Positions 5,973-53,616 of a stretch of 64,000 nt of DNA are shown here, one piece after another (position 1 is the first letter of the stretch; the number at the start of each line of letters is the position of its first letter). The notes below the pieces were generated by a model, which saw nothing but the letters and a program-made list of their open reading frames with translations, made no database searches and was not told the DNA's origin. This stretch comes from Patescibacteria group bacterium (lineage in GTDB: Bacteria > Patescibacteriota > Patescibacteriia > SG8-24 > DYFX01). Both the position numbers and the translations under genes were made by a program. The stretch covers positions 134,111-198,110 of the forward strand of contig JBAZZB010000001.1 in the NCBI GenBank assembly GCA_041659045.1, in the 5' to 3' direction.

Positions 5973-5998
5973 ATCTTCCGAAGGATTCCGGTACCCTT

Positions 5999-6024
5999 GG
6001 CACGTCGCTCGCGAACGACGTGCC
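5999..6024. promoter_or_regulatory. 26-nt near-perfect palindrome GGCACGTCG-CTCGCGAA-CGACGTGCC (copy A of a 2-copy element)
   Basis: Inverted arms of 9 nt with an 8-nt spacer, followed directly by cTTGACG. A near-identical copy lies at 26998-27023 upstream of umuD. No U-tract follows, so it is not a classical intrinsic terminator. Confidence 0.35.
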
Positions 6025-6042
6025 TTGACGCGAAAACGGCCT

Positions 6043-6116
6043 GCGGGTATCGTACATCGGTAGTATGCGACCTTCCCAAGGTTGAGAGACGGGTTCGATT
6101 CCCGTTACCCGCTCCA
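6043..6116 (+). tRNA. tRNA-Gly (anticodon CCC)
   Basis: Cloverleaf: acceptor GCGGGTA/TACCCGC, anticodon stem CGACC/GGTTG with loop TTCCCAA, T-arm ACGGG-TTCGATT-CCCGT, 3' CCA encoded. Confidence 0.85.
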
Positions 6117-6117
6117 T

Positions 6118-6193
6118 GCCACCTTAGCTCAGCCGGTAGAGCAATGCTTTCGTAAAGCAGAGGTCCGGGGTTCGATTCCCCGAGGTGGCTCCA
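6118..6193 (+). tRNA. tRNA-Thr (anticodon CGU)
   Basis: Acceptor GCCACCT/AGGTGGC, D-arm GCTC-AGCCGGTA-GAGC, anticodon loop TTCGTAA, T-arm CGGGG-TTCGATT-CCCCG, CCA encoded. It lies 1 nt after tRNA-Gly. Confidence 0.85.
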
Positions 6194-11681: not shown

Positions 11682-11752
11682 CTCGGGGACTTGGATTCGA
11701 ACCAAGATTCACGGCTTCAAAGGCCGCTGTCCTACCATTGGACGATCCCCGA
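11679..11752 (-). tRNA. tRNA-Gln (anticodon UUG)
   Basis: On the minus strand: acceptor TCGGGGA/TCCCCGA, D-arm GTCC-AATGGTA-GGAC, anticodon stem GCGGC/GCCGT with loop CTTTGAA, T-arm CTTGG-TTCGAAT-CCAAG, discriminator G, CCA encoded. Confidence 0.8.
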
Positions 11753-22413: not shown

Positions 22414-22513
22414 CGCTTTGCGCGTCGCTCACGGGCGACCTGTCTTGACGGCGAGTCGGAAATGGGAGATACTCCCTGTCGATTCGCCTTTTCTTTTCAG
22501 GAGAAGAAGTAGC

Positions 22514-26964: not shown

Positions 26965-26997
26965 GTCATCCTACGCCACTCGCGAGTGACGTGGCCT

Positions 26998-27023
26998 GGC
27001 ACGTCGTTCGCGGACGACGTGCC
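26998..27023. promoter_or_regulatory. 26-nt near-perfect palindrome GGCACGTCGT-tcgcgg-ACGACGTGCC (copy B) abutting the -35-like TTGCGC upstream of umuD. Candidate operator (SOS-type).
   Basis: 10-bp inverted arms; it ends 1 nt before TTGCGC and 38 nt before the umuD ATG. Near-identical to 5999-6024. A second palindrome CACTCGCGAGTG lies at 26977-26988. Confidence 0.4.
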
Positions 27024-27060
27024 TTGCGCTGTTCGCCATAACGGACGGTACGGTGGGAGC

Positions 27061-29959: not shown

Positions 29960-30748
29960 ATGTCTGAAGAGTTGAAGACGTTTGATTGGGAATGTTCTTT
30001 GAACGATCTGGTCGCGAAAAACAACGACCACGCGTTCGCGGCGCTGTTGGACGGAAAGACGTCCGACGAAGCGCTGGCCGTGTGTCAGAAGTTGTACCAG
30101 ACCTACGTCGACGAGCACGATGACGTTTGTGCGCTGCGGCAGGTCGAGTACCTGCTGACGATGCAGCGCGATCTGTTCCGCGAGGCACCGAACGCCGACG
30201 CTCGGTCGGTGCAGTACGGCATGGCCGAGGCTGCGTTGACGCGATGGCGTAAGTTGCCTCGCAACAAGGAGGGTCGACCCGGCTGTCCGAGCACGCCGAC
30301 GCTCTTGAAGACGAAGGTGTACCTCGCGAGCATTGCGGCGTCCGTCTGGGCGGCGCGCGAGACGAAAGCTGTGTCTGCCGCGGCCATCCTCATGGGCCTG
30401 CTGTCTCTGCCACATTTCGGCAACGCCGAAGAAAAGCTCTTGCTGGAGGTGGTGAGGGCGGTGCTGGAGCATGTTCCGCACGAACGGCTCTGTCACCACG
30501 CGGTCATCGTCATCGAGATGATGTCGCGTGCGGAGCGAGGTTCGCCGTCCGCGCGTCCGCACCCGTTCTTGCGGCCGATGCTCACCACGCTCGTGCGACG
30601 TTTGGTGACCGAATACGCTGAGAGGCCGAAGCTGCAGAACTTTGCTGTCGCACTGCGTGTCCTGAGTGCGCTCGGCGAATCAACCGATTCATCGGTGGGG
30701 CAGGCTCTCGAAGCACAAGCCAAGATGTTGATTGCGAAAGTCGATTGA
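29960..30748 (+). CDS. Hypothetical all-alpha protein (262 aa)
   Basis: AAGGAG 6 nt upstream of the ATG. Long structured 5' leader; GC3-rich codons. Confidence 0.6.
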   Translation: MSEELKTFDWECSLNDLVAKNNDHAFAALLDGKTSDEALAVCQKLYQTYVDEHDDVCALRQVEYLLTMQRDLFREAPNADARSVQYGMAEAALTRWRKLPRNKEGRPGCPSTPTLLKTKVYLASIAASVWAARETKAVSAAAILMGLLSLPHFGNAEEKLLLEVVRAVLEHVPHERLCHHAVIVIEMMSRAERGSPSARPHPFLRPMLTTLVRRLVTEYAERPKLQNFAVALRVLSALGESTDSSVGQALEAQAKMLIAKVD

Positions 30749-31878: not shown

Positions 31879-31916
31879 GATAGGAAGTGGACGTACAAAA
31901 CAGGAGACCGAAAGAC

Positions 31917-33005
31917 ATGCTCGATTGCATCAAGGCAAGTGGTTCTTTCTACGACGTCGGCGTGATCGTTGGGGAGCGCACTCGCGAAGGAATTCTCTCT
32001 GCGGCGCGCTACGCGTTGCCAATGTTGCTGGAGAAGGGCTTCGGTGGCGATGACGTGGCCATGCGGGCCGCCACGGACGGCTATGTCGAAGCGTCCGGCA
32101 ACTTCTTCCCCCAGTCGATCGAGTTCATGCACGGCCTTGCCGACGGCTGCGGAATGGTTCGGCACGAACAGCTCGCAGTCGCCTTCGGCGAAGAGCTGGA
32201 GTACTTCCCGCGCGTCGAGCGCTGCTCGACGATGGTTATCTGGACGCCCGATGGTCCGGTGATCGCGAGAAACGAGGATTTCTGGGAGAGCTACTTCGAA
32301 GGGCTGGCCATCTATGACCTCACCTTCGACAACTTTCCGCGTGTTGTCTCGCTCAACTACGTCGGTTACATGCCGCACCTCGGCGGCTCGCTGACCGTCA
32401 TGGAAGACCAGCCGCAGCGGTCGTTTGCCCTCGCGAACGATTCTCTCTGGCTGCCGACTCGTCACGGCATTCCCAAGCAGGTCAAGCACTTCCGAGCAGC
32501 GCTCGCGCGCGGCGTAGGGGATGCGATCAGCTTCCTTGTCGCCCAGCCCAGTTCATTGTCGGACCACTTCACGGTGGCAAGCGTCGAACGCGCTGTTTCG
32601 CTCGAAGTTTCGAATGCGGAGAACGCGGTAGAAGTCGCTCGGTGGTACGATATCGTGCCACGCGACGTAGGCAACGTCTTGACTGTGACGGCTCCGTTCT
32701 GCCACACGAACAGCGTTCGTTGGTTGGAGCCGAAGATGCCAGATCCAGCACCGCCCGGTTCGCACATGCGCTACTGGCGGCTCGAATCGGTTGCGCAGAA
32801 CGATCCTCCTCGCACGTATGAGGAGCTCGAGAAGCTCTTCTCGACGCGCGATGGGATCATCCGGCGCGACAACGAGGTCAACCTGACGCTCCAGCCCAAC
32901 AGCTGTACGCTGGCCACGACGATCATCGATCCAGGCAAGCGCCGCATGACGATACTTCGTTACCGGCGTGACGGCTCGCAGGTGCGCGACGTGTTCCAGC
33001 TCTAA
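31917..33005 (+). CDS. C45 family peptidase / acyl-CoA:6-APA acyltransferase-like Ntn hydrolase
   Basis: AGGAGA RBS. An RVERCSTMVIW-like nucleophile Cys follows the self-cleavage Gly; overall size and motifs fit the C45/AAT family. Confidence 0.6.
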   Translation: MLDCIKASGSFYDVGVIVGERTREGILSAARYALPMLLEKGFGGDDVAMRAATDGYVEASGNFFPQSIEFMHGLADGCGMVRHEQLAVAFGEELEYFPRVERCSTMVIWTPDGPVIARNEDFWESYFEGLAIYDLTFDNFPRVVSLNYVGYMPHLGGSLTVMEDQPQRSFALANDSLWLPTRHGIPKQVKHFRAALARGVGDAISFLVAQPSSLSDHFTVASVERAVSLEVSNAENAVEVARWYDIVPRDVGNVLTVTAPFCHTNSVRWLEPKMPDPAPPGSHMRYWRLESVAQNDPPRTYEELEKLFSTRDGIIRRDNEVNLTLQPNSCTLATTIIDPGKRRMTILRYRRDGSQVRDVFQL

Positions 33006-34822: not shown

Positions 34823-36166
34823 ATGGCGAACCACAAACTCAATCCATTCTCCGAAACGCTCAAGACGTTTTTTGGGCGCGATACTTCGATTCTGCGGGAG
34901 GCTTTAAAGGCAATACAACCCGCTGAACTCGGCGTGATCATTAACGGGTTGTCCGAGCGCGAGAAAATTCAGGTGCTCGCCCTGCTTGAAGACCAAAAAC
35001 TCGGGCGCGTTTTGTGGGAAGTCAGCCCCCACACGAGACGCAGACTTCTTACAAGGATGTCTTCGGATCGTTTGGTGAAGCTCGTGACGGGTTTGGAATC
35101 GGACGAAGCGGCCGACGTCATTCAGCTGCTCGACCGTCGTCGCAAGGAGCGCATCATCGAGGCGCTCCGACGCCACGACCCCAAGAAGATTTTACCGCTT
35201 CTCGGTTTCGAAGAAGAGACGGCCGGCGGTCTCATGAAGTCCGAGTATTTGCGCGCGGAATCCGGCAAGACGGTCGAAGAAGTGCGTAAAGCGATTGCGG
35301 CTACGGGCAGCGGCCTGCAAAAAGCTTCGACGGTGTATGTCGTCGACGCGACGAATTCGCTGGTTGGCGCAATTTCGTTGATGCGTTTGGCAACCGCGTC
35401 AGCTGATAGTTTGATTGACGATTTGGCACACATTCCACCGACCAAACTTCCGGTCGGGATGTTGCAAGACGAGGTGACGCAGCTTTTCAGTGATCTCGAC
35501 GCGGTCGAACTTCCCGTTGTCGACGCACGAGGGAAACTCCTCGGTGTCGTGACGGCCGACGACGTGCTCGACGTGTTGAAGGAATCTCTTTCCGAAGATC
35601 TTTCGCGCTTCAGCGGTACTTCTGAAGACGAGCACGTGAGCGACCCTGCCTGGCTCTCGATTCGCCGCCGCTTGCCGTGGCTTCTTGTGAACCTTGCGAC
35701 CGCTGTTCTGGCAGCGTCCGTCGTCGCGCAATTTCAGGATACGATCAGCCAGATCGTCATTTTGGCGGCGCTCATGCCGATCGTCGCGGGTATGGGAGGA
35801 AACGCCGTGACGCAAACGCTCGGCGTTTCGATTCGTGCACTCGCGCTTCATCAGCTACATACCTGGGACATTTGGAAGATCACTGTTCGGCAGATGCTGG
35901 TCGGCGCAGCGAACGGCTGCTTGACCGGCGTGGTGATGGGTGGTCTGGCGTACGCGTGGACAGGCGACATTCAGCTCGCGTTCGTCATGGTGATCGCCAT
36001 GACAGTGACGCTCTTCATCGCTGGACTCGGTGGGATCCTGATTCCCGTCACTATGAAGAAGCTGAAGATCGATCCGGCGTTGGCTTCGACCGTCTTTGCC
36101 ACGACTCTGACTGATGTGATCGGGTTCCTGACATTTCTCGGTCTGGCTAAAATCCTTTTGACATGA
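34823..36166 (+). CDS. mgtE: Magnesium transporter MgtE
   Basis: N-terminal domain, tandem CBS (…VYVVDATNSLVGAISLMRL…LPVVDARGKLLGVVTADDVLDVL), and a C-terminal 5-TM MgtE domain. Confidence 0.9.
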   Translation: MANHKLNPFSETLKTFFGRDTSILREALKAIQPAELGVIINGLSEREKIQVLALLEDQKLGRVLWEVSPHTRRRLLTRMSSDRLVKLVTGLESDEAADVIQLLDRRRKERIIEALRRHDPKKILPLLGFEEETAGGLMKSEYLRAESGKTVEEVRKAIAATGSGLQKASTVYVVDATNSLVGAISLMRLATASADSLIDDLAHIPPTKLPVGMLQDEVTQLFSDLDAVELPVVDARGKLLGVVTADDVLDVLKESLSEDLSRFSGTSEDEHVSDPAWLSIRRRLPWLLVNLATAVLAASVVAQFQDTISQIVILAALMPIVAGMGGNAVTQTLGVSIRALALHQLHTWDIWKITVRQMLVGAANGCLTGVVMGGLAYAWTGDIQLAFVMVIAMTVTLFIAGLGGILIPVTMKKLKIDPALASTVFATTLTDVIGFLTFLGLAKILLT

Positions 36167-37521
36167 AATTGCATTTCTTCGGTGCCGCTCAGGAAGTGAC
36201 GGGTACGTGCTACTTGTTGGAGTCGGGGAGTCATAAAGTGCTCGTCGATTGCGGAATTTTTCAGGGCGGCGACGGCGACAGCAAGCGGAACCACTTGCCG
36301 TTCCCGTTCGAACCGGACGCGATCGACGCGATCTTTTTGACGCATCCGCACATGGACCACGTTGGTCGCGTGCCTCTGCTTGTGAAGCGCGGCTACCGTG
36401 GGCCTATTTTTACAACGTTCCCGACAGCCGATCTCACCAAGTTGCTGTGGAAGGACATGTTGTCCGTCATGCAAGACGCGGAAAAGCGTGAACATGTGCC
36501 GCCTCTCTACGACGAAGATGACGTGGCCAAAGCGGAAGCGCGGCTCATGCCGGTTGAATACGAGACGCTGGCGGAAATTTGCGCGGGAGCGATTAAGGCG
36601 ACCTTCCACGACGCCGGTCACGTCCTTGGTTCGGCGTTTATCGAGTTTAACGTCGAGAATCGAACGGTCGTTTTTTCTGGAGACCTTGGCAACGATGACG
36701 TGCCGATTTTGCGTCCGACGGCGTCTCTGCCCGCTTGCGACGTGCTTGTGATCGAGTCGACCTACGGAGATCGTTTGCACGAAGACTTGCAGACACGCCA
36801 AACGATTTTGCGTGACCTCGTGAAAGAGACGATCGAAAAAAAGGGCGTGCTCATGATCCCGACCTTCGCGATCGAGCGCACGCAGGAAATCATGCTGACG
36901 CTGCATCGTCTTGCGGAGAACGGGGAAATTCCGCGCGTGCCGATTTTCCTCGACAGTCCGCTGGCCATCAACGCCACGCATGTGTATGAAGAGTACGGCC
37001 GGTATTTCAACGAGAATGCCAAAAAGGAGATGATGTCTGGTCACGAGTTATTTGAGTTGCCAGGTTTTGTCGCCACCAAGACGCCGGACATGTCGAAAAA
37101 AATTAATGATGTCGTGCCGCCGAAAGTGATCCTGGCGGGATCCGGCATGATGACGGGTGGACGCATCTTGCATCATCTCGTCCGTTACTTGCCTGACCCG
37201 AATTCAACCTTGATGATCGTCGGGTATCAGGCGCACGGGACGGTTGGACGCCGATTGTATGAAGGCGCAAAAACCGTGCGCATCCACGGTCACGATGTTC
37301 ACGTCAACGCGACCGTGACCTCCGTTGGTGCCTGGAGCGCGCACGCCGACCAAGCAAAACTCCTGCGTTGGATCCAGAGTGCACCGAAGAAGCCGGAGGT
37401 CGTTCTCGTGACGCACGGCGAACAAAACGCGTCGGAAACACTCGAGCGAAAACTGAAGCGGGACCTGAACATCGATGCCTATGTTCCGGCTCCAGGCCAG
37501 ATGTTCAACCTACATACATAA
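36163..37521 (+). CDS. MBL-fold beta-CASP ribonuclease (RNase J-like/CPSF-like)
   Basis: HPHMDHVG metallo-beta-lactamase motif, beta-CASP region and a C-terminal RNA-metabolising MBL domain; ATGA overlap with mgtE. Confidence 0.7.
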   Translation: MKLHFFGAAQEVTGTCYLLESGSHKVLVDCGIFQGGDGDSKRNHLPFPFEPDAIDAIFLTHPHMDHVGRVPLLVKRGYRGPIFTTFPTADLTKLLWKDMLSVMQDAEKREHVPPLYDEDDVAKAEARLMPVEYETLAEICAGAIKATFHDAGHVLGSAFIEFNVENRTVVFSGDLGNDDVPILRPTASLPACDVLVIESTYGDRLHEDLQTRQTILRDLVKETIEKKGVLMIPTFAIERTQEIMLTLHRLAENGEIPRVPIFLDSPLAINATHVYEEYGRYFNENAKKEMMSGHELFELPGFVATKTPDMSKKINDVVPPKVILAGSGMMTGGRILHHLVRYLPDPNSTLMIVGYQAHGTVGRRLYEGAKTVRIHGHDVHVNATVTSVGAWSAHADQAKLLRWIQSAPKKPEVVLVTHGEQNASETLERKLKRDLNIDAYVPAPGQMFNLHT

Positions 37522-37532
37522 GAGGAAGTACA

Positions 37533-37559
37533 AAAATAGCCTAAAATAGGCTATTTTTG
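37533..37559 (+). terminator. Rho-independent terminator
   Basis: AAAATAGCC-taaaat-GGCTATTTT followed by a T-run. Confidence 0.75.
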
Positions 37560-37591
37560 CTAATATAAGCCATTTATATTGTTATTTAGTA

Positions 37592-37621
37592 TTGACAAAA
37601 CTGTCTAAATATGCTAGACTG
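37592..37621 (+). promoter_or_regulatory. Strong sigma70-like promoter driving the GC-rich island
   Basis: TTGACA (37592-37597), a 17/18-nt spacer, then TAGACT (37616-37621), in an AT-rich stretch ~50 nt upstream of the 37671 ATG. Confidence 0.55.
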
Positions 37622-37670
37622 CTTGCATCGTAGGACTGACAGTTCACCCCGCAATTCTGGAGGATTTCTC

Positions 37671-37982
37671 ATGAAGCCCCTGCTCATTTCGCTCATCATC
37701 GCCCTCGGCCTCTTCGCCACCACCTCGACCGCTTCGGCCGACCGCACCTTCGAGGTGAAGGACGACGTGGTGAAGCTGGTCATCAAGAAGGCGAAGTTCG
37801 TCTTCGCCAAGCCCACCACCACCCTCATCAAGACCTGTGTCGACGACGCCCGCTACGAGTGCGTCTACAAGCTGGTCGGCAAGAACCGGCGCCAGAAGGA
37901 GATCAAGATCTACGAGTACCGCGCGGACGACTACGTCTTCCCGATCTACATCACCGAGCACAAGCTCGCCTCCACCAACTGA
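37671..37982 (+). CDS. Small secreted protein (island gene A)
   Basis: GGAGGA RBS; signal peptide MKPLLISLIIALGLFATTSTASA; 103 aa with 2 Cys; extreme GC3 codon bias. Confidence 0.6.
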   Translation: MKPLLISLIIALGLFATTSTASADRTFEVKDDVVKLVIKKAKFVFAKPTTTLIKTCVDDARYECVYKLVGKNRRQKEIKIYEYRADDYVFPIYITEHKLASTN

Positions 37983-38033
37983 TCGCGTCGCGATCACTCA
38001 GCTCAGCGCGTCGAGCCTCCGCTCGACGTCTCT

Positions 38034-38080
38034 GCCAAAGCTTCCGAGTCTCTCGGAATCTCCGGCAGGGAAACGTTCCC
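38034..38080 (+). repeat. Island repeat R1 (47 nt, two hairpins) upstream of gene B
   Basis: gccaaagcttCCGAGtctCTCGGaatctccggcaGGGAAacgTTCCC; the homolog is at 38499-38548. Confidence 0.5.
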
Positions 38081-38116
38081 AACGAGACACCACCACATAC
38101 CACAGCGAGGTTACCC

Positions 38117-38452
38117 GTGCCCGAGTTCAAGCTCTACATCATTGCCGACGCGTGCGCGCCCGCCGCCCTCATGTTCGGACCGTTCAACTCTCCCGAGGCG
38201 GCCGACGCCTGGCTCGAGGAGCTCAAGGGTCGGCTGCCCGCCAACGAGTGGCACCACAAGGTGCAGACGATCAAGGGGTCGTACCTCCCCAACGCGCTCG
38301 TCTACAGGCGCTTCCAGAACATCGCCACCAAGCAGTGGTTCACGGTCCACCTCGTCGAGGTCGACAAGGACGCCGCGGTGGCCAGCACGTTCGAAGCCGC
38401 GCAGGACCTCGCCACGGTGCTCTTGCACCTGAACCTCAAGTCCGCCACCTAG
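38117..38452 (+). CDS. Hypothetical cytoplasmic protein (island gene B)
   Basis: GTG start with GAGG upstream; 111 aa; GC3-rich. Confidence 0.5.
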   Translation: MPEFKLYIIADACAPAALMFGPFNSPEAADAWLEELKGRLPANEWHHKVQTIKGSYLPNALVYRRFQNIATKQWFTVHLVEVDKDAAVASTFEAAQDLATVLLHLNLKSAT

Positions 38453-38498
38453 TCTCACCCCTCAGTCTTCGCAGGACGCCCGCCCCCGTCCTGCTCCC

Positions 38499-38548
38499 GC
38501 CAAAGCTTCCGATAGAATCGGAATCTCCGGCGGGAAAATCTTCCCGCC
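38499..38548 (+). repeat. Island repeat R2 (50 nt, two hairpins) upstream of gene C
   Basis: gccaaagcttCCGATagaATCGGaatctccggcGGGAAaatcTTCCCgcc; hairpin 1 carries compensatory changes relative to R1 (CCGAG/CTCGG to CCGAT/ATCGG). Confidence 0.5.
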
Positions 38549-38600
38549 TGTTTCTGTTCATGGGCGATCGTGCCCAACAACCCCGGCCAAGGAGGCCACC

Positions 38601-39077
38601 ATGCACCGTCCCGATTTGATGCTGAGCCGCGAAGTGCTGCGCCCGCGACCTGCTCCGACGTTCCCGCGCCGCAAGCTCGGATTCATTCCGATCAGCTTGA
38701 TCGTTGCGGGTGTCGTCGCGATCACGGTCGCAGTCATGGGCATGATGCACGATCGTTCGATGCGCCAGCCTTCCGTGGCCGGTCTGTCGGTCCCGGCTCC
38801 GTCGGCGCCGTTCGCCTGCACGCTCGAGGATCGCGAGATCCAGAACCTCGTCTACGAGCTCTCCATGCACGGCTGGATCCAGCCGTTCGAAGTCGAGGGG
38901 GTCTCGTGCGATCCGTTCAGCCAGACCTCGCCGAAGGTGCGTTTCACCATCGTCGAGCGTCCGGTGGACGAGCTCTGGATCTACTACACGACCGAGCATC
39001 GCTATCCGTGCAAGCCGCCCAAGGAGTCGTGGCTGCGCGGAGATCCGAGCGCCTGGAAGTACTGCTACAAGCGGTGA
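38601..39077 (+). CDS. Membrane-anchored protein with Cys-containing extracytoplasmic domain (island gene C)
   Basis: AAGGAGG RBS; one TM (FIPISLIVAGVVAITVAVMGMM); 158 aa. Confidence 0.6.
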   Translation: MHRPDLMLSREVLRPRPAPTFPRRKLGFIPISLIVAGVVAITVAVMGMMHDRSMRQPSVAGLSVPAPSAPFACTLEDREIQNLVYELSMHGWIQPFEVEGVSCDPFSQTSPKVRFTIVERPVDELWIYYTTEHRYPCKPPKESWLRGDPSAWKYCYKR

Positions 39078-39079
39078 CC

Positions 39080-39190
39080 ATGTTCGAAGTTCTGTTCCTT
39101 CTCGCTCTGGTCGTCGCGCTCCTCACGGACGTGACGCCAGAAACCAAGATCGTCGCGCCCGCGCCGCCCGACGACCTCAACCTCAACTGA
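39080..39190 (+). CDS. Possible 36-aa TM peptide
   Basis: ATG overlaps the gene C stop (gTGAccATG); MFEVLFLLALVVALLTDVTPETKIVAPAPPDDLNLN. Confidence 0.3.
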   Translation: MFEVLFLLALVVALLTDVTPETKIVAPAPPDDLNLN

Positions 39191-39295
39191 CCGCACCTAT
39201 CCGGTCATAAAAATGATAGGGTTCTCTCTGAGCGTTCGAGTGATCGAACATTCGGATCGGAATTCCGTCCGCTCCAGACGTTTTTAGGAGGTCCC

Positions 39296-39526
39296 ATGCG
39301 CTTCTGGTCCGCCTTGTCTCTGTTCATCCTCAGTCTTGTTGCCATCGTCCACGGCTACCGCGTCCAGGAGGATGGGTACTTCGTGAGCGGCTTCATCGCT
39401 TTGTTGGTGAGTGTTCTCGCCATGGTCTATTACACCTGGGTGTACACCATCGAGACGCTCAGCGAGGAAGTCGCCAAGACCATCGCCAAGGAGAAAAGGA
39501 ACATCAGGAGCCATCATGGCCCCTGA
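39296..39526 (+). CDS. Small 2-TM membrane protein (island gene D)
   Basis: AGGAGG RBS; 76 aa. Confidence 0.55.
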   Translation: MRFWSALSLFILSLVAIVHGYRVQEDGYFVSGFIALLVSVLAMVYYTWVYTIETLSEEVAKTIAKEKRNIRSHHGP

Positions 39527-39681
39527 GCAAGATCAATCATGGTTCGTCGAGGACAACCATGCACAACCCGTCGGTTCTCACGGCGGGTTTTATCGTTCCC
39601 TAATATTCTTGACATGTGAGCTTTTCCTTGGTAGCCTCAACCTCGTCTTTGGACAGCCCGTTTTACGGGTAGGAGGACATC

Positions 39682-40830
39682 ATGCGTACCCAGCTCGCTC
39701 TGCTCGTTTCCTTGGTTTTCGTGGTCTGCACCGGCGCTTGCGCCGGTCGTCAGCGCCCCCAGTCGGGCCTGCGTTCCGAGCTGCATCAGCCGCTGGCCGC
39801 TCCCGACCCCAAGGTCCAGAGCGTCCCCATCGATACGGAGATCGTCGTGCCCGAAGCACCGCACGCCGCCGCCTCGGTCGCGGCAGTCGCCGTCCCCAAG
39901 AAGATCGTGCCGAAGCGCATCAAGCGCGTCCGTTCCGCTCAGGAACAGATCAACTTCGATGTGCGGCAGATCATCAACGCGAACAACGCCTGGCTCCGCG
40001 CCGTGGGCGAGCGAGTGTACGGGACGCGTGTCCCGCCATCGCTGCCCATGAACGACGAGCTCGTCGCTGCTCTGCGCATCGAACCCAACACCGTCGAACG
40101 TCCGCGACGGTACGTCGCGAAGGCACCGCGCGCTTCCGTGAAGCACGCCAAGCCCCCGATCCCGTCCGTGACGCACGTCGTCTACAGCGCCGCGCGAACG
40201 CGCTCGTTGACACCGCTACCACCAAAGGTGCAAGAACGCGCAAACGTTGCCGCTCTTGCCGCCCTGGAATCGCCTGATCCCACGACGCTCGGCGTCGTGA
40301 GTTCCGCCCCGCCCGCTACTACGGAAGCCACATCTTCCGTCGTGCACATGTCCAACATGTCCGCGCGACGTTCCGATGTCGCGCTCACCGATCCCAAATC
40401 CTCTTCGATCGACGTGGTCGATCGCCCGCACCTGTTCGAACCGAGCGCTTCCGTAAGCGCTTCCAGTCCGTTCTACCAGCTCTACCTCCCGGCGATCATC
40501 TTCGCGGTGATCCTCGGTCCGCTCCTTGGTTACATCCTTTCGCGCCGTCCAACGCGCGTTTCGTCGTTCGATGATGACGTCGTTCGCGACGCCACCAGCA
40601 CAGTCGTTACCGACCCTGCTCCGACCCACGTACTCGCCCTTGCGCACGTCGTACCTCACTCCGCCCCGACCCAGGAGGCCAGGCCTCCTCACCAGTTCCC
40701 GGAAGGTTCCGGACAGATCATCCGTTCGGAAGACCTCAACACCGGTCAGATCGCTGCCGGTGAGATCGAGGACAAGAACCTCGACGCGCCTACCCAGGCG
40801 CCACCCACGAACACCATCTACTTGAACTGA
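39682..40830 (+). CDS. Lipoprotein/secreted low-complexity protein with a C-proximal TM (island gene E)
   Basis: AGGAGG RBS; signal peptide with Cys; Pro/Ala/Ser-rich; TM FYQLYLPAIIFAVILGPLLGYIL near the C-terminus. Confidence 0.6.
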   Translation: MRTQLALLVSLVFVVCTGACAGRQRPQSGLRSELHQPLAAPDPKVQSVPIDTEIVVPEAPHAAASVAAVAVPKKIVPKRIKRVRSAQEQINFDVRQIINANNAWLRAVGERVYGTRVPPSLPMNDELVAALRIEPNTVERPRRYVAKAPRASVKHAKPPIPSVTHVVYSAARTRSLTPLPPKVQERANVAALAALESPDPTTLGVVSSAPPATTEATSSVVHMSNMSARRSDVALTDPKSSSIDVVDRPHLFEPSASVSASSPFYQLYLPAIIFAVILGPLLGYILSRRPTRVSSFDDDVVRDATSTVVTDPAPTHVLALAHVVPHSAPTQEARPPHQFPEGSGQIIRSEDLNTGQIAAGEIEDKNLDAPTQAPPTNTIYLN

Positions 40831-40856
40831 CGTGGTCAGTTCCGCGCAACTTCATC

Positions 40857-40885
40857 GGCCCCTCCTCGCGAGGCGGCCGTTTTTT
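40857..40885 (+). terminator. Rho-independent terminator ending the island
   Basis: GC-rich hairpin (GGCC-cctcctcgcgagg-CGGCC) followed by TTTTTT. Confidence 0.75.
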
Positions 40886-40933
40886 ATCTCTTTTTTTGAC
40901 ACGTTCGCCATCTCATTCTCTAAGCTGCTATTG

Positions 40934-40962
40934 TTGACAAGACCCTTTAGAAGCGGTATTTT
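40934..40962 (+). promoter_or_regulatory. Putative uvrB promoter
   Basis: TTGACA (40934-40939), 17 nt, then TATTTT (40957-40962); ATG at 40982. Confidence 0.4.
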
Positions 40963-40981
40963 GCGTTCTTATTGATCCGTC

Positions 40982-43024
40982 ATGAACTTCAAGCTCAAAG
41001 CACCCTATTCGCCAGCCGGAGATCAGCCGCAAGCTATTGAAAAGCTCGTGGCCGGTTTGAAGTCGGGCCAGGAGATGCAGACGCTTCTTGGTGTGACGGG
41101 TTCAGGAAAAACGTACACCGTCGCCAACGTTATTCAGGAAATGCAGAAGCCAACCTTGGTGATCGCGCATAACAAGACGTTGGCCGCGCAGTTGTGCAAC
41201 GAGTTCCGCGAGTTCTTCCCGGAGAACGCTGTTGAGTACTTCGTGTCGTATTACGACTACTACCAGCCGGAAGCTTACGTGCCGTCGAGCGACACCTATA
41301 TCGAGAAGGAATCGATGATCAACGAAGAGATCGATCGACTTCGACACGCTTCGACGCAGGCACTTCTGACGCGCAAGGACGTCATCATCGTTGCTTCGGT
41401 TTCCTGCATCTACGGCTTGGGTGCGCCGGAACAATATGAAAAAACCGTGCTTCATTTCAAAACAGGGGAGCGCATCACGCGCGAAGGCGTTTTGACGCGT
41501 TTTATCGAGATGCAGTTCGAGCGCACGACCGCCGATCTGACGCGTGGCCATTTCCGCGTGCGCGGTGAAACGGTCGAGGTCATGCCGGCGAACGAAGAGA
41601 TGATCTATCGCATCGAGACGGGCATGGGCGAGATCACGGGCATCTATAAAATCGATCCGCTGACGCGTAAGCGTGCCGAGCGTGTCGAAGATGTTTGGAT
41701 TTTCCCAGCCAAGCACTTCATTACGAATGCTGAAGATCGGACACGTGCCTTGGCACAGATGGAAATTGAAATGAAGGCACAGCTCGAGAAGTTCCGCAAA
41801 GAAGGAAAGCTGCTCGAAGCAGAGCGTCTTGAACGCCGTACGCGGTTCGATATGGCGATGATGCGCGAAGTCGGCTACTGCCACGGCATCGAGAACTATT
41901 CGCAGATTCTTTCCGGACGTCCGCCGGGTGCTCCGCCGGATACGCTCATGTCGTATTTCCCGAAAGATTTCTTGATGGTCATCGATGAATCGCATGTCAC
42001 GATTCCGCAGATCGGAGGCATGTCGGCGGGGGACGCGGCGCGCAAGAAGACGCTTATTGAATACGGTTTCCGTTTGCCGAGCGCTGCCGATAACCGCCCG
42101 CTTGCCTGGGCGGAATTTGAATCGCGCATGCCGCAAGCCTTGTTTGTTTCGGCGACGCCTGGGAAATACGAATACGCAAACAGTGACCAGATCGTCGAGC
42201 AAATCATTCGCCCGACGGGTCTTGTCGATCCTGAAGTCATTGTGAAACCGGTTACGGAAGACCTGAACACTGGTTACAAAGGCCAGGTTGAAGATTTGAT
42301 TGAGCGCATCAAGGGCCGTATTGAAAAAGACGAGCGCGTCATGGCGACGACGCTCACGAAAAAAATGGCCGAGGATCTTACGACGTATCTCGAGACGCTC
42401 AAGATCAAAGTGAAATACATTCATTCCGACGTCGAGACGCTTGATCGCATCCAGATTCTCCACGAGTTTCGTCGTGGCGTGTTCGACGTCTTAATCGGCG
42501 TGAACTTGCTGCGTGAAGGTCTCGACTTACCGGAAGTTTCGCTCGTCGCAATTCTCGATGCCGACAAGGAGGGTTTCCTCCGTTCTGAAACGTCGCTGAT
42601 TCAAACAATCGGCCGCGCCGCGCGTAACGTCGGTGGCCAAGTCGTGCTGTATGCCGACGGCGATACCGGTTCGCTCACGCGCGCGATCAGAGAAACCAAT
42701 CGCCGCCGTGAACGGCAGATGGCGTACAACAAGGAGCACAACATTACGCCGAAGACGGTGAAGAAAGCGATCACGTCGATGTTCACCGAGATTGAGAAGT
42801 CTCGCGAGAAGGCCGCTAAGCGTAACCTCGAACTGGAAGCCAAGGCTGAGAAACGCCCGCTCGAAGCCGTGTTGAAGGAAAAAGAACTGCAGATGCGTGA
42901 CGCCGCCAAATCGCTCGAGTTCGAACTCGCGGCGCTCCTGCGCGATGAAATTCGCGAGCTCAAGAAGAAGCAGGCCGAAGCGGAGGCGAAGCCGAAGACC
43001 GCCAAACCGCGCCGCGGGCGCTAA
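40982..43024 (+). CDS. uvrB: Excinuclease ABC subunit B UvrB
   Basis: GVTGSGKT Walker A, helicase motifs, and the C-terminal UvrB/UvrC interaction motif [15 protein letters not shown]. Confidence 0.95.
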
Positions 43025-48072: not shown

Positions 48073-49224
48073 TTACTGGCCGCAGGTGGTGTGCGGACCA
48101 GGAACGTCGATCCGAACGATCTCGCCCAGGCCGCTTTGCGTTCCGACGCCGTAGCCACGGTTCGAGACGAAGAGGTCGCCTTCCGGGCCGAAAGCCATGC
48201 CGGTGGGCAGCGTCAGTCCTTGCGCGACGACCTGCAATCCTTCGTCGGTCCACCGCAGCACACGACCGCTGGCCGTCGTCAAGAACGGCGGGTACGGCGT
48301 GTTGCCTGTCGAGGACTCGAGTAAGTACAGCTTCCCGGCGCAGTCGAAGGCAAGATCCATGACGGTCGTGAGTCCTGTCATGAGGTGCGTCACCTGGCCG
48401 GCGGGCGTGACCTTGAACAGGTGCGCCTGACCGTCAGGATACGGCAGCTCGCCGAACGTGCCGACGTAGAAGTTCCCATCCTTGCCGTGAGCGAGCGACG
48501 TATAGGTGAGCTGACCGATGAGCGAGAGGTCTGCCACGCGCGTGACCGTGCCATCGAGCTCCGCCTTGAGCAGCTGCGCGTGGTTTCCTTCCAGCACGTA
48601 GAAGCTGTTGCCGACGACGACCGTATCGGTCGGAACGCCGTCCGGGGCCGTATCGTCGTCTGCTGGCCCCGCGGTCGGGTTGGCGAGGATCCAGGCGCCG
48701 AGGTCGACGACCAGGGTGCGCGCGCCGCCGGCGTCCATCCGGTAGATGCCCTTCGGCTGGTCGGCCGGATTTCCGGTCGAGCAGCCGCCGCCTTGGACGA
48801 CGACGTACGGCACTCCGCCCATGAAGACGATCTCCTCGGGCCCGACCACCTCCGAACCGGTCCATGGCGTGGTCTGCCCCGAAGGAAGGCCGTCGCTGAA
48901 CGTGCTGCGCACGCCGTCGACGCCGATCTTCGACACGCGGCCCGTGGGGCCACCCGTGATCGGCCCGAGAGGCTCGGGAGCCTGCTCGCAGAGGCCGACC
49001 GTGGAGTTGGAGCCGCCGCGTCCCGCCTCGGCGACGAAGAGTATGTCTCCGTCGAATGCGAGGCCGCGTGGGTTGTCCAGGTTGGTCGTGAAGACCGTGA
49101 CGGGCGCCGTTAGCGCAGGATCCGTCGTCGATGTGTCGGTGTCGTCCGAGCCAAGCGCGACGCAAGCGCCGAGCATTAGCATGCCGACAAGGGTGAGTCG
49201 CCGTTTCATTCCTAATATTTCCAT
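48073..49224 (-). CDS. ScyD/ScyE family beta-propeller lipoprotein
   Basis: ATG at 49224 with AGGAGG 7 nt upstream; lipobox LGAC; repeated ...GLAFDGDILFVAEAG... and ...GMAFGPEGDLFVSN... blades; GC3-rich. Confidence 0.65.
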   Translation of the reverse strand: MEILGMKRRLTLVGMLMLGACVALGSDDTDTSTTDPALTAPVTVFTTNLDNPRGLAFDGDILFVAEAGRGGSNSTVGLCEQAPEPLGPITGGPTGRVSKIGVDGVRSTFSDGLPSGQTTPWTGSEVVGPEEIVFMGGVPYVVVQGGGCSTGNPADQPKGIYRMDAGGARTLVVDLGAWILANPTAGPADDDTAPDGVPTDTVVVGNSFYVLEGNHAQLLKAELDGTVTRVADLSLIGQLTYTSLAHGKDGNFYVGTFGELPYPDGQAHLFKVTPAGQVTHLMTGLTTVMDLAFDCAGKLYLLESSTGNTPYPPFLTTASGRVLRWTDEGLQVVAQGLTLPTGMAFGPEGDLFVSNRGYGVGTQSGLGEIVRIDVPGPHTTCGQ

Positions 49225-49370
49225 CCGAATCCTCCTGAGCTTTATGCGGTACACACGCGTTCAACGCGAACGCGTCAGCACCGCCAGGAGGTTTTACGCT
49301 CTCCTGCAAAAAGTGTCAAGCCCCGCAGGACACTCAGATTTTTCCGGCTGTTTTTTATCCCCAATTTCCG

Positions 49371-52887: not shown

Positions 52888-53616
52888 CTAGAAACGATGG
52901 CTCTGGAAGAAGGTTTGGCGACGGCGCAGAAGGACTTTCATGTCGATCGCGCAGCGCGGGCAGTAGTTGAACGGAAGGTGCAACCCATCGTCGTCGACGA
53001 AGCACGCGTGCGGAGCGACCTCATTCGGCGACGGGAGCCGCACGTACTCGGTGACGAGCGCGGCGTGTGCCATCCAGTCGCAGCAGAGCGGCGGCTGATC
53101 GATGGGGCCGGCCCACGGCGTGTGCGTGATGGTGCTGTCGATCTTGTACCGATCGAACGGGCAGCAGCTGATCGCGAGGCGCATGAGGCCGCGCATCTGC
53201 TGCTCGAGTCCGAGGTTCATGACGAGTAGCGTCCTCTCCGACATGCCGGGGCGGCGCAGCATGATGAAGCGTCCGTCGTCGCTGCCAGTGAAGATCTTGC
53301 CGATCGACACTTCGAACGACTCGCACCAGCAGGGGTCGGCGGCCGGCTGCTTGAGCAGTCCGATGACCTCCTCGGAGAGAAAGTACGGATCCGGCTCGTT
53401 CTCGACCGTGACGGAGATGTCCGGGTAACCGTCATCCTCCTCGTCGGTCGACGTGTCCGGGACGCTCGGCTTCTGCACCGCGGTTCGCGCGCTGCGCTGC
53501 GAAGTCGCGCGGCGATGCATGGCATAGCCGCTCGGTGAAGGGGTCGGGACCGGCACAAGCCGCGTGGGCTTCTCGATCTCTCTCCGCTTCGCTTCGTTCG
53601 ACGTGCGTTCGGCCAT
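52888..53616 (-). CDS. Hypothetical Cys-rich protein (possible zinc-binding C-terminal domain)
   Basis: 242 aa; CWCE, CCPF, LCCDW, HACF and CPRC clusters in the C-terminal half. Confidence 0.5.
   Translation of the reverse strand: MAERTSNEAKRREIEKPTRLVPVPTPSPSGYAMHRRATSQRSARTAVQKPSVPDTSTDEEDDGYPDISVTVENEPDPYFLSEEVIGLLKQPAADPCWCESFEVSIGKIFTGSDDGRFIMLRRPGMSERTLLVMNLGLEQQMRGLMRLAISCCPFDRYKIDSTITHTPWAGPIDQPPLCCDWMAHAALVTEYVRLPSPNEVAPHACFVDDDGLHLPFNYCPRCAIDMKVLLRRRQTFFQSHRF

Follow-up and report, generated by a model that had tools for sequence, protein, structure and literature searches.

The DNA analysed here is a stretch of 64,000 nucleotides, referred to below as the window, from a Patescibacteria group bacterium (assembly GCA_041659045.1, contig JBAZZB010000001.1, positions 134,111 to 198,110), and the subject is the 3.46-kb spacer between a gene for a beta-CASP metallo-beta-lactamase RNase (452 aa, 36163-37521) and uvrB (40982-43024), which holds six plus-strand open reading frames (ORFs), A to F. 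This cluster is probably a lineage-specific, vertically inherited and rapidly diverging locus of a Patescibacteria clade of genus or family level, represented by Minisyncoccota- or Parcubacteria-like metagenome-assembled genomes (MAGs). The same judgement covers jointly the vertical descent and fast evolution of the locus, its division into two transcription units, a codon bias maintained in its genes, and a structured RNA element repeated between them, together with the roles proposed for it. The best reading of the whole is an operon for abundant surface or envelope proteins, in which the intercistronic RNA structures would set the processing or the stability of the transcript.

An independent gene caller applied to an identical metagenome contig returned the same six-ORF set. 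The features of the locus, in window coordinates, are the following.

37530-37560, strand unassigned: palindromic hairpin terminator closing the beta-CASP RNase gene, with a 14-bp stem, in an AT-rich spacer; flagged on the minus strand.
37592-37620, plus strand: promoter P_A, TTGACA-17 nt-TGc-TAGACT, with an extended -10; 10 of 12 consensus matches, with the TG.
37671-37982, plus strand: gene A, 103 aa, with a Sec signal peptide ending ASA|D, two conserved Cys and the C-terminus ..STN; GC content at third codon positions (GC3) 0.96.
38008-38082, plus strand: structured RNA element, copy 1, with hairpin H0, a bipartite P1-P2 with the conserved CAAAG / CUCC internal region, and the short hairpin P3; 74 bits, minimum free energy (MFE) fold z = -4.0.
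38117-38452, plus strand: gene B, 111 aa, GTG start, predicted cytoplasmic alpha+beta protein without a transmembrane (TM) segment; GC3 0.96.
38471-38547, plus strand: structured RNA element, copy 2, whose 3' hairpin (38529-38548) is terminator-like; 80.6 bits, MFE fold z = -4.5.
38601-39077, plus strand: gene C, 158 aa, predicted N-in single-pass membrane protein with a 4-Cys ectodomain, from the ORF and TM prediction.
39074-39190, plus strand: gene D, a 36-aa TM peptide from 39080 (38 aa from the GTG at 39074), ending ..DDLNLN; the GTG overlaps the stop of C, to which D would be translationally coupled.
39296-39526, plus strand: gene E, 76 aa, two TM segments; no homologue found.
39565-39595, plus strand: intrinsic terminator ending the first transcription unit, a 9-bp stem followed by TTTTAT, its position kept upstream of P_F in seven loci.
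39609-39637, plus strand: promoter P_F, TTGACA-17-TGGTAGCCT (TGG-TAGCCT); TTGAC and TG.TAG.CT are invariant in 7 of 7 aligned loci.
39682-40830, plus strand: gene F, a putative lipoprotein of 382 aa with the lipobox ..TGAC|AG, a low-complexity ectodomain, a C-terminal TM segment and a cytoplasmic tail ending ..YLN; GC3 0.76.
About 40856-40897, plus strand: intrinsic terminator ending F, a GC hairpin with a T-run, from a hairpin and fold scan.

This layout agrees with a first-pass annotation of the DNA in the six ORFs between an RNase J-like gene and uvrB, in a near-consensus TTGACA promoter at the entry of the cluster, in a terminator within the AT-rich entry spacer and in a strong exit terminator. 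The single promoter that was thought to drive the whole segment is indeed present and strong upstream of A, but two transcription units are recognised, the terminator at 39565-39595 being followed by P_F. P_A would thus drive A, the first element, B, the second element, C, D and probably E, and P_F would drive F. The structured element, repeated over 47-75 nt at 38008-38082 and 38471-38547, had no place in that earlier description.

The relatives compared comprise 11 species-level loci retrieved with the RNase protein at 74-96% identity and labelled as Minisyncoccota or Patescibacteria MAGs; they and further loci carry the labels L002-L012, L046, L051, L063, L064 and L067. A cluster of 1.7-4.8 kb lies 3' of the RNase gene in 11 of the 11 relatives, and uvrB-uvrA closes the 10 loci that reach that far, the contig of L005 ending first. 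When the ORFs of these gaps are clustered, the F family is found in 10 loci, A in nine and D in three to five, beside the C family, B-like proteins and a family of proteins with a TM segment plus a coiled coil; every relative whose locus reaches uvrB has orthologues of A and/or F. Those of A (9 of 11 relatives) are 35-74% identical to the window protein and those of F (10 of 11) 22-56%. Homologues of D are present in L007, L010 and L011, and probably in L006 and L002, and homologues of C in L006 (26% identity) and, by inspection, in L046. A P_A-like sequence, TTGACAAAA...TG.TAGACT, precedes the first cluster gene in L002, L003, L004, L006, L007 and L010. Nucleotide identity to L002 and L004 runs unbroken from the flank through the promoter and gene A into the first element, and homology resumes at 39604. 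No integrase, transposase, tRNA target or flanking direct repeat was found at the locus, the only tRNAs of the window being located at 6043-6190 and 11682-11752. The cluster had been taken for a probable horizontal acquisition. That assignment is not borne out by clusters at the same site in all relatives, orthologous A, D and F, kept promoters and the missing mobility signature; homologues in conserved synteny in relatives, named at the outset as evidence against such an acquisition, are largely what the synteny comparison brought to light.

Both promoters combine an unusual extended -10, TG-n-TAG(A/C)CT, with a perfect TTGACA -35, and the combination does not vary among seven species; in the uvrB promoter (40934-40962), by contrast, the sequence is TATTTT. 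A common regulator or sigma specificity may lie behind the shared -10. Several cluster genes have their ribosome-binding site within a conserved, self-complementary sequence, GGCC-AAGGA-GGCC (window 38581-38600; L046 about 405-420, 2190-2207 and 2660-2680), a small hairpin with GGA in the loop that is reminiscent of CsrA-type sites.

Some relatives show further peculiarities at this site. Extra genes lie between the RNase gene and the cluster in L010 (11414-13412) and L005 (4764-6014), among them one for a multi-TM transporter-like protein of ~390-416 aa, and L010 additionally has a 204-aa ORF with a HEAGH motif; the site therefore tolerates insertions. A highly conserved stretch of ~250 nt is found 3' of the RNase gene in L007 (11377-11666), L012 (11356-11723) and L005 (6100-6360) and is absent from the window. 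It was considered as a non-coding RNA and rejected: a small minus-strand ORF (MNIKILRA.GAAAVLTALF..DSATTVPNS..) together with a terminator accounts for it better. Rfam contains no match to it. It is also worth mentioning that several MAGs of the clade (L003, L005-L008, L010, L012) bear the title 'uncultured Gammaproteobacteria bacterium', an apparent mislabel, because their RNase protein is 75-94% identical to, and their synteny shared with, those of Patescibacteria genomes.

Vertical descent is combined with very unequal rates of protein evolution. Among the relatives as a whole, identity is 74-98% for flanking proteins and 26-75% for A and F. In L002, L003, L004 and L006 the flanking proteins share 88-98% identity with those of the window, with a nonsynonymous divergence (dN) of 0.014-0.08 and a synonymous divergence (dS) of 0.9-1.8, near saturation. 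In the same four pairs identity falls to 40-75% for A and 30-56% for F, and dN reaches 0.16-0.55 and 0.35-0.77, respectively, against 0.014-0.08 for the RNase gene and uvrB; by dN the cluster proteins diverge 10-15 times as fast as their neighbours. The dS of A is 0.15-0.33, and its nominal dN/dS of 1.1-1.6 is unreadable as positive selection because a GC3 of ~0.97 compresses dS. These rates suggest that the cluster proteins are under weak or diversifying constraint of the kind typical of surface-exposed products.

The composition of the cluster points in the same direction as its synteny. GC3 is 0.96 in A and B, 0.84 in C, 0.81 in D, 0.82 in E and 0.76 in F, against a mean of 0.652 (sd 0.072, maximum 0.86) in the other 59 genes of the window and 0.68 in the two flanking genes, which corresponds to z = 4.3 for A and B, 2.2-2.6 for C-E and 1.5 for F. 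The jump in GC3 that the first-pass annotation had described over a segment of ~3.3 kb is therefore real against these 59 genes, but the extreme bias is limited to A and B, the two most extreme genes of the window, F standing only in the upper tail of its range. Bulk GC is 0.60 in the cluster versus 0.556 in the flanks, and GC skew is negative, with C-rich third positions. Gene A keeps a GC3 of 0.95-0.98 in the window, L002, L004 and L006, where the flanks range from 0.68 to 0.83, and the cluster genes of L046 have 0.85-0.95. At the other end of the scale is L067, whose flanking genes have a GC3 of 0.36-0.39, while its A-like lipoprotein gene and the next gene, for an exported protein, have 0.76-0.78 and its RNA element is 41% GC. 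Since the bias persists in orthologous clusters against a background GC3 of 0.37 to 0.83, it appears to be maintained rather than to be the fading signature of a donor; and because in L067 the non-coding element drifted to the GC of the host while the adjacent coding third positions stayed GC-rich, selection on synonymous sites is indicated, not recent transfer. As judged from these comparisons, the high GC3 is a gene-specific codon bias apparently held by selection on synonymous sites and not a mark of foreign DNA.

In gene A the bias consists of C at 0.73 of four-fold sites, C at 0.94 of Y-ending two-fold sites and G at 1.00 of R-ending sites. The direction is the same, and the strength less, in rplU, the sole ribosomal protein gene of the window, where the corresponding values are 0.54, 0.80 and 0.74. 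The bias most likely reflects optimisation at the level of codons or mRNA in a gene with very high expression and/or a long-lived mRNA. In L067 the relevant segment (1152-2181) is made up of the A-like lipoprotein gene, an element with compensatory changes in P1 and the exported-protein gene, and upstream of it an SPFH/band-7-like gene takes the place of the RNase gene. The next-highest GC3 values of the window (0.76-0.86) belong to other lineage-specific hypothetical genes, at 48073-49254 and 52888-53616 on the minus strand and 29960-30748 and 31887-33005 on the plus strand, one of which encodes a putative lipoprotein with a long Gly/Thr-rich ectodomain; raised GC3 may be a general property of the orphan or exported genes of this genome.

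The second distinctive component of the locus is the RNA element. The A-B and B-C spacers share a direct repeat of 47 nt, the core of an element of ~75 nt that is 84-89% identical in nucleotide sequence in relatives in which the adjoining coding DNA is unalignable. Its 5' part, H0, is a GC-rich 9-bp hairpin, usually CGUCGAGC...GCUCGACG, replaced in some copies by unrelated complementary sequences. P1 is a 6-bp helix followed by a 2x2 internal loop (AA / YC) and two invariant pairs (A-U, G-C), and P2 is a 7-bp hairpin, UUCCGAN...NUCGGAA, whose loop varies. P3, a short hairpin on the 3' side that is often present, overlaps the 3' strand of P1. The invariant nucleotides are CAAAG / CU(C/Y)C and CCGA/UCGG.

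The structure is supported by covariation. In an alignment of 13 copies made without reference to structure, 94.8% of the pair cells are paired and 15 of the 24 pairs are doubly changed, against 30-45% and three to five pairs in controls with slid partners; an alignment of 19 copies gives 95.1% and compensatory double changes in 16 of 24 pairs. RNAalifold recovers P1-P2 independently, and the MFE fold of each window spacer contains H0 and P1-P2 (z = -4.0 and -4.5). Copies score 47-88 bits with a covariance model on the plus strand and at most 35 bits on the minus strand, and G-U pairs are formed only on the plus strand; this suggests an RNA structure, or at least a single-strand structure of the plus strand. 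Nothing in Rfam (15) matches it at E <= 1 in 36000-42000, only tRNAs pass the gathering threshold in the window and three loci, and a literature search for a described RNA motif of Patescibacteria returned nothing relevant.

There are two copies in the window and up to five elsewhere, 19 in total. A covariance-model scan of the 64-kb window and ~205 kb of related loci detected no copy outside this type of locus, and a degenerate pattern scan of a metagenome collection (42 stretches), filtered with the model, added copies only in L046, L064, L063 (the contig of L009) and L067. In L046 five copies are distributed one per spacer among six small genes. A pattern hit in L051, in a Firmicute-like context, was discarded: it is palindromic, scores on both strands and looks like a chance match. 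The element is a candidate new cis-acting RNA family, supported by covariation and confined to this locus type in the sequence examined.

Its position, 20-70 nt past a stop and 25-65 nt before the next start, with H0 ~20 nt past each stop, leaves the Shine-Dalgarno sequence uncovered. The element is unlikely to be a plain terminator because it has no U-tract while canonical U-tract terminators occur elsewhere in the locus, at 39565 and about 40856; only the 3' hairpin of copy 2 (38529-38548) is scored as terminator-like, and this with a loose definition. Its most conserved nucleotides lie around the internal loop and in the P2 stem, both loops being variable, and because of this distribution a recognition site for a nuclease or an RNA-binding protein is favoured over a riboswitch or a plain terminator. 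On the transcript the element would act as a site of processing or protection (RNase III, J or Y) or of protein binding, and it would uncouple the amount of A from those of the downstream products and stabilise parts of the polycistronic message. The general principle of structure-protected operon mRNAs with a programmed differential decay is treated by Dar and Sorek (2018, PMC5927463).

Of the alternatives to a processing or binding site, the one that survives best, although it is rather unlikely, treats the elements as merely leaky terminators or attenuators without a U-tract, giving polarity (A >> B > C) and having no processing or binding role. A GC-rich 9-bp hairpin shortly after each stop would suit such a function, and so would the copy-2 3' hairpin, flagged together with TGTTTCTGTT as terminator-like, the canonical terminator lying directly 3' of the element in L003, and another family of palindromic hairpins with a related stem (ACGTCG) that marks the ends of other genes in the window. 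The best-conserved part, however, is not H0 but P1-P2 with its invariant CAAAG, CCGA/UCGG and CUCC, for which a plain terminator has no need, and the true ends of the units use canonical U-tract terminators. For H0 by itself, a leaky-terminator role is possible.

The other palindromic family, GGCACGUCG..CGACGUGCC (GGCACGTCGyTCGCGrACGACGTGCC), is found at five gene ends, just past plus-strand stops, and is either a terminator without a U-tract or a hairpin resembling repetitive extragenic palindromic (REP) sequences; its stem shares ACGTCG with H0. Its copies are as follows.

2539-2568, 5998-6027, 22418-22447, 26969-26998 and 26997-27026, window: copies of the second palindrome.

The proteins of the cluster belong to no family that could be recognised, as had been claimed at the outset: none of the six has a match above threshold in Pfam, NCBIfam, PHROGs or PADLOC, and hence no such link to phage proteins (PHROGs) or defence systems (PADLOC). 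Word-index searches found six relatives of A, seven of F and, for B, only itself. An exhaustive search of 1.84 billion cluster representatives with a hidden Markov model profile of A retrieved only 20, each with a length of about 100-117 aa. The A family is composed of small exported or lipid-anchored proteins, predicted to be beta-rich, with two conserved Cys and with lipobox variants in L008, L009 and L067; the AlphaFold2 (AF2) model of A, from a 6-sequence alignment, has a predicted local distance difference test score (pLDDT) of 45. The B-like family is small and cytoplasmic, sometimes tethered to the membrane, and no member exceeds a Pfam cut-off. The best Pfam candidate for B, a SPOR domain (PF05036), was rejected, its 15.6 bits being below the gathering cut-off of 21 and the hit occurring in 1 of 6 B-like sequences. 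The single-sequence AF2 model of B (pLDDT 72) has TGAM_1934 of Thermococcus gammatolerans (PDB 2mcf) as its only structural neighbour, an archaeal protein 11% identical to B and with a PDB entry title that gives no function. For E the best match is FtsL at a sub-threshold 15.7 bits. Inspection of F reveals the features of a lipoprotein: M-R-x is followed by a hydrophobic segment and G-A-C-A-G, and A19 and C20 do not vary among 10 orthologues. Beyond the lipobox lie a short conserved helical segment (..NDEIVAAL..), a low-complexity linker and a TM segment, and the cytoplasmic tail carries a G-S-G motif; no member of the F family has a Pfam match or a profile match in the PDB. With products that are exported, anchored and fast-evolving, a role in the envelope or at the surface would be the most economical reading.

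It had been proposed earlier that the cluster resembles either a bacteriocin/immunity or a cell-surface/host-interaction cassette. The latter is compatible with exported, lipid-anchored, TM and fast-evolving products, and for the former the family searches gave no positive evidence. A bacteriocin or toxin with its immunity proteins, in which A (or C) would be a secreted antimicrobial and the small TM and cytoplasmic proteins would be immunity factors drawn into an arms race, is unlikely. It fits the architecture loosely, given the strong promoter, the small Sec-exported disulfide protein, the TM peptides, the variable content and the very fast evolution. Against it stand the missing match to any bacteriocin, toxin or immunity family in the four collections, the ordinary Sec signal peptide of A, the lack of an ABC transporter, modification or lysis gene among the six ORFs, and the universal and syntenic, not patchy, occurrence of the cluster in the clade; moreover F, the largest of its conserved components, has the appearance of a membrane-anchored lipoprotein with a structural role.

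A further feature shared by unrelated products of the locus is a C-terminal Asn, often as Leu-Asn. Of 48 curated proteins from loci of this type 22 have it, but of the 59 other proteins of the window only 1 (Fisher p = 1e-8, with orthologues that are not independent of one another). At least five unrelated families are affected, namely A, D, F, the coiled-coil protein and the TM-tethered B-like protein. In the window the ends are ..STN in A (37977-37982), ..LNLN in D (39185-39190) and ..YLN in F (40825-40830), and such ends recur in L002-L012, L046 and L067. The terminal Leu is encoded by CTC and TTG and the Asn by AAC and AAT, and because both codons of each are used the signal would be one at the protein level; the stop that follows is usually UGA, then C or U. 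A single sorting pathway does not fit, because the predicted topologies put the Asn C-termini on both sides of the membrane. A literature search for a C-terminal-Asn signal returned nothing relevant.

The elements appear to evolve in concert, and the genes between them change places. In L002, in L004 and in L006 the two copies have H0 parts that match at 100%, loop included, whereas the mean between genomes is 57%, and two copies in L046 are identical over H0 and P1-P2; on this evidence the copies are undergoing concerted evolution. Copies 1 and 2 enclose B in the window and L002 but a 2-TM protein gene in L006, and the order is B then C in the window, C then B-like genes in L046. To judge from such differences in content and order, the direct repeats of ~75 nt would serve as recombination substrates by which the small genes between them are reshuffled.

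An integron-like array, with the elements as attC-like recombination sites of folded single-stranded DNA that capture promoterless small genes behind a fixed promoter, is very unlikely. Reminiscent of such an array are the short ORFs of about 300-500 bp, the structured imperfect palindrome bounding each of them, a single strong promoter at a fixed chromosomal site, a cassette content and order that vary among relatives, and the concerted evolution of the repeats. Yet no tyrosine recombinase (IntI) adjoins it in 12 loci, the flanks always being the RNase gene and uvrB, and the elements have no R''/R' core sites (RYYYAAC / GTTRRRY) but a consensus composed of a CAAAG...UCUCC core and a separate perfect hairpin. 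Their conserved nucleotides, in the internal loop and the P2 stem, are typical of an RNA or protein recognition site, their placement between stops and starts is within a transcribed operon, and homologous recombination between direct repeats suffices for shuffling without a dedicated enzyme. Nor is a diversity-generating retroelement indicated, there being no repeat of the template/variable (TR/VR) type in the 64-kb window and no reverse transcriptase ORF in the locus.

A recent island, derived by transfer from a donor of higher GC and placed between the RNase gene and uvrB, is highly improbable and largely refuted: its deviating composition (GC 0.60 vs 0.556, GC3 up to 0.96 vs 0.68 in the flanks), the near absence of database homologues of its proteins and the GC of 0.62-0.66 in relatives, which makes an intra-clade donor conceivable, are outweighed by the occupation of the same site in every one of the 11 relatives, with A, D, F and the promoters being orthologous, by the absence of an integrase, tRNA or flanking repeat at the locus, by the continuity of nucleotide identity with L002 and L004 from the flank through the promoter and A to element 1, by the GC3 of 0.95-0.98 that A keeps in four species despite saturated synonymous divergence in the flanks, without amelioration, and by the cluster-gene GC3 of 0.77 that low-GC L067 keeps while its non-coding element has drifted to 41% GC.

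Several observations weigh against the vertically inherited surface-protein operon with a maintained codon bias and a locus-specific RNA element. The low-GC case is a single 2.3-kb locus, L067, and its A-like gene is similar to A in architecture only (hhalign probability 1.7%). The 'optimal' codons are defined from one ribosomal protein gene only, rplU. Because dS of A is compressed, its dN/dS is no evidence for either positive selection or mere relaxation. As regards the element, it is dispensable, since L007 and L011 carry the cluster without a detectable copy and L008 has only a weak candidate, and its description as locus-specific refers to the 64-kb window, ~205 kb of relatives and 42 metagenome stretches.

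A more far-reaching version of the surface-protein operon, which is unlikely as a whole, would make the cluster an 'expression site' specific to the candidate phyla radiation (CPR) for interchangeable envelope genes. The repeat would both punctuate the transcript and mediate integrase-independent shuffling, the terminal Asn would mark a new pathway of C-terminal recognition, modification or turnover, and the GC3-rich coding would be an mRNA-stability design by which ribosome-poor episymbionts produce abundant surface proteins.

Patescibacteria (CPR) are a large, mostly uncultured group of bacteria attached to host cells, and the genes that shape their surface are largely orphans. The exported proteins A, D and F, conserved in the clade and yet fast-evolving, are candidates for roles in the envelope or in host attachment. 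The element adds a candidate cis-acting RNA family with strong covariation that is specific to one type of operon, and the C-terminal Asn signature could indicate a new signal of processing or quality control. High GC3 confined to an 'island' need not be a mark of transfer, since selection can maintain it as a property of an operon, and this calls for caution with island callers based on composition. No major paradigm is changed by these findings.

Among known systems, the closest in layout to the A-E unit is the early polycistronic mRNA of phage T7, in which RNase III processing hairpins (R0.3-R1.3) lie between the cistrons. In both, an irregular hairpin with an internal loop is repeated in the intercistronic spacers of a strongly transcribed polycistron, between a stop and the next ribosome-binding site, with sequence conserved around the internal loop. 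The elements described here differ in having no sequence or Rfam relationship to those of T7, in their bipartite form (H0 and P1-P2, with or without P3) and in belonging to a cellular CPR operon.

REP sequences and bacterial interspersed mosaic elements (BIMEs) are intercistronic palindromes that stabilise upstream mRNA segments, as between malE and malF of E. coli. They too are repeated extragenic palindromic hairpins within operons, plausibly protect 3' ends and can mediate recombination; REPs, however, are dispersed over the genome in hundreds of copies, whereas the present element occurs in only one type of locus in the sequence scanned and has a conserved non-palindromic core. In integron cassette arrays one promoter serves short promoterless ORFs bounded by attC sites, and the cluster resembles them, without further implication, in its promoterless short genes behind one promoter, its structured repeats and its variable content at a fixed site. 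It is unlike them in having neither an integrase nor an attC core, in a covariation compatible with G-U pairs only on the coding strand of a transcribed spacer, and in the stable orthology of A and F.

Finally, fast-evolving loci for abundant surface proteins, such as pilins, S-layer proteins and variable lipoproteins, combine high expression with rapid divergence of the protein. The present cluster differs from them in that it has no homology to such families, no phase-variation repeats and no silent cassettes. What it shares with them is a strong promoter together with codon bias, exported and lipid-anchored products, and a dN far above the norm in proteins that nevertheless keep their signal peptides and Cys residues.

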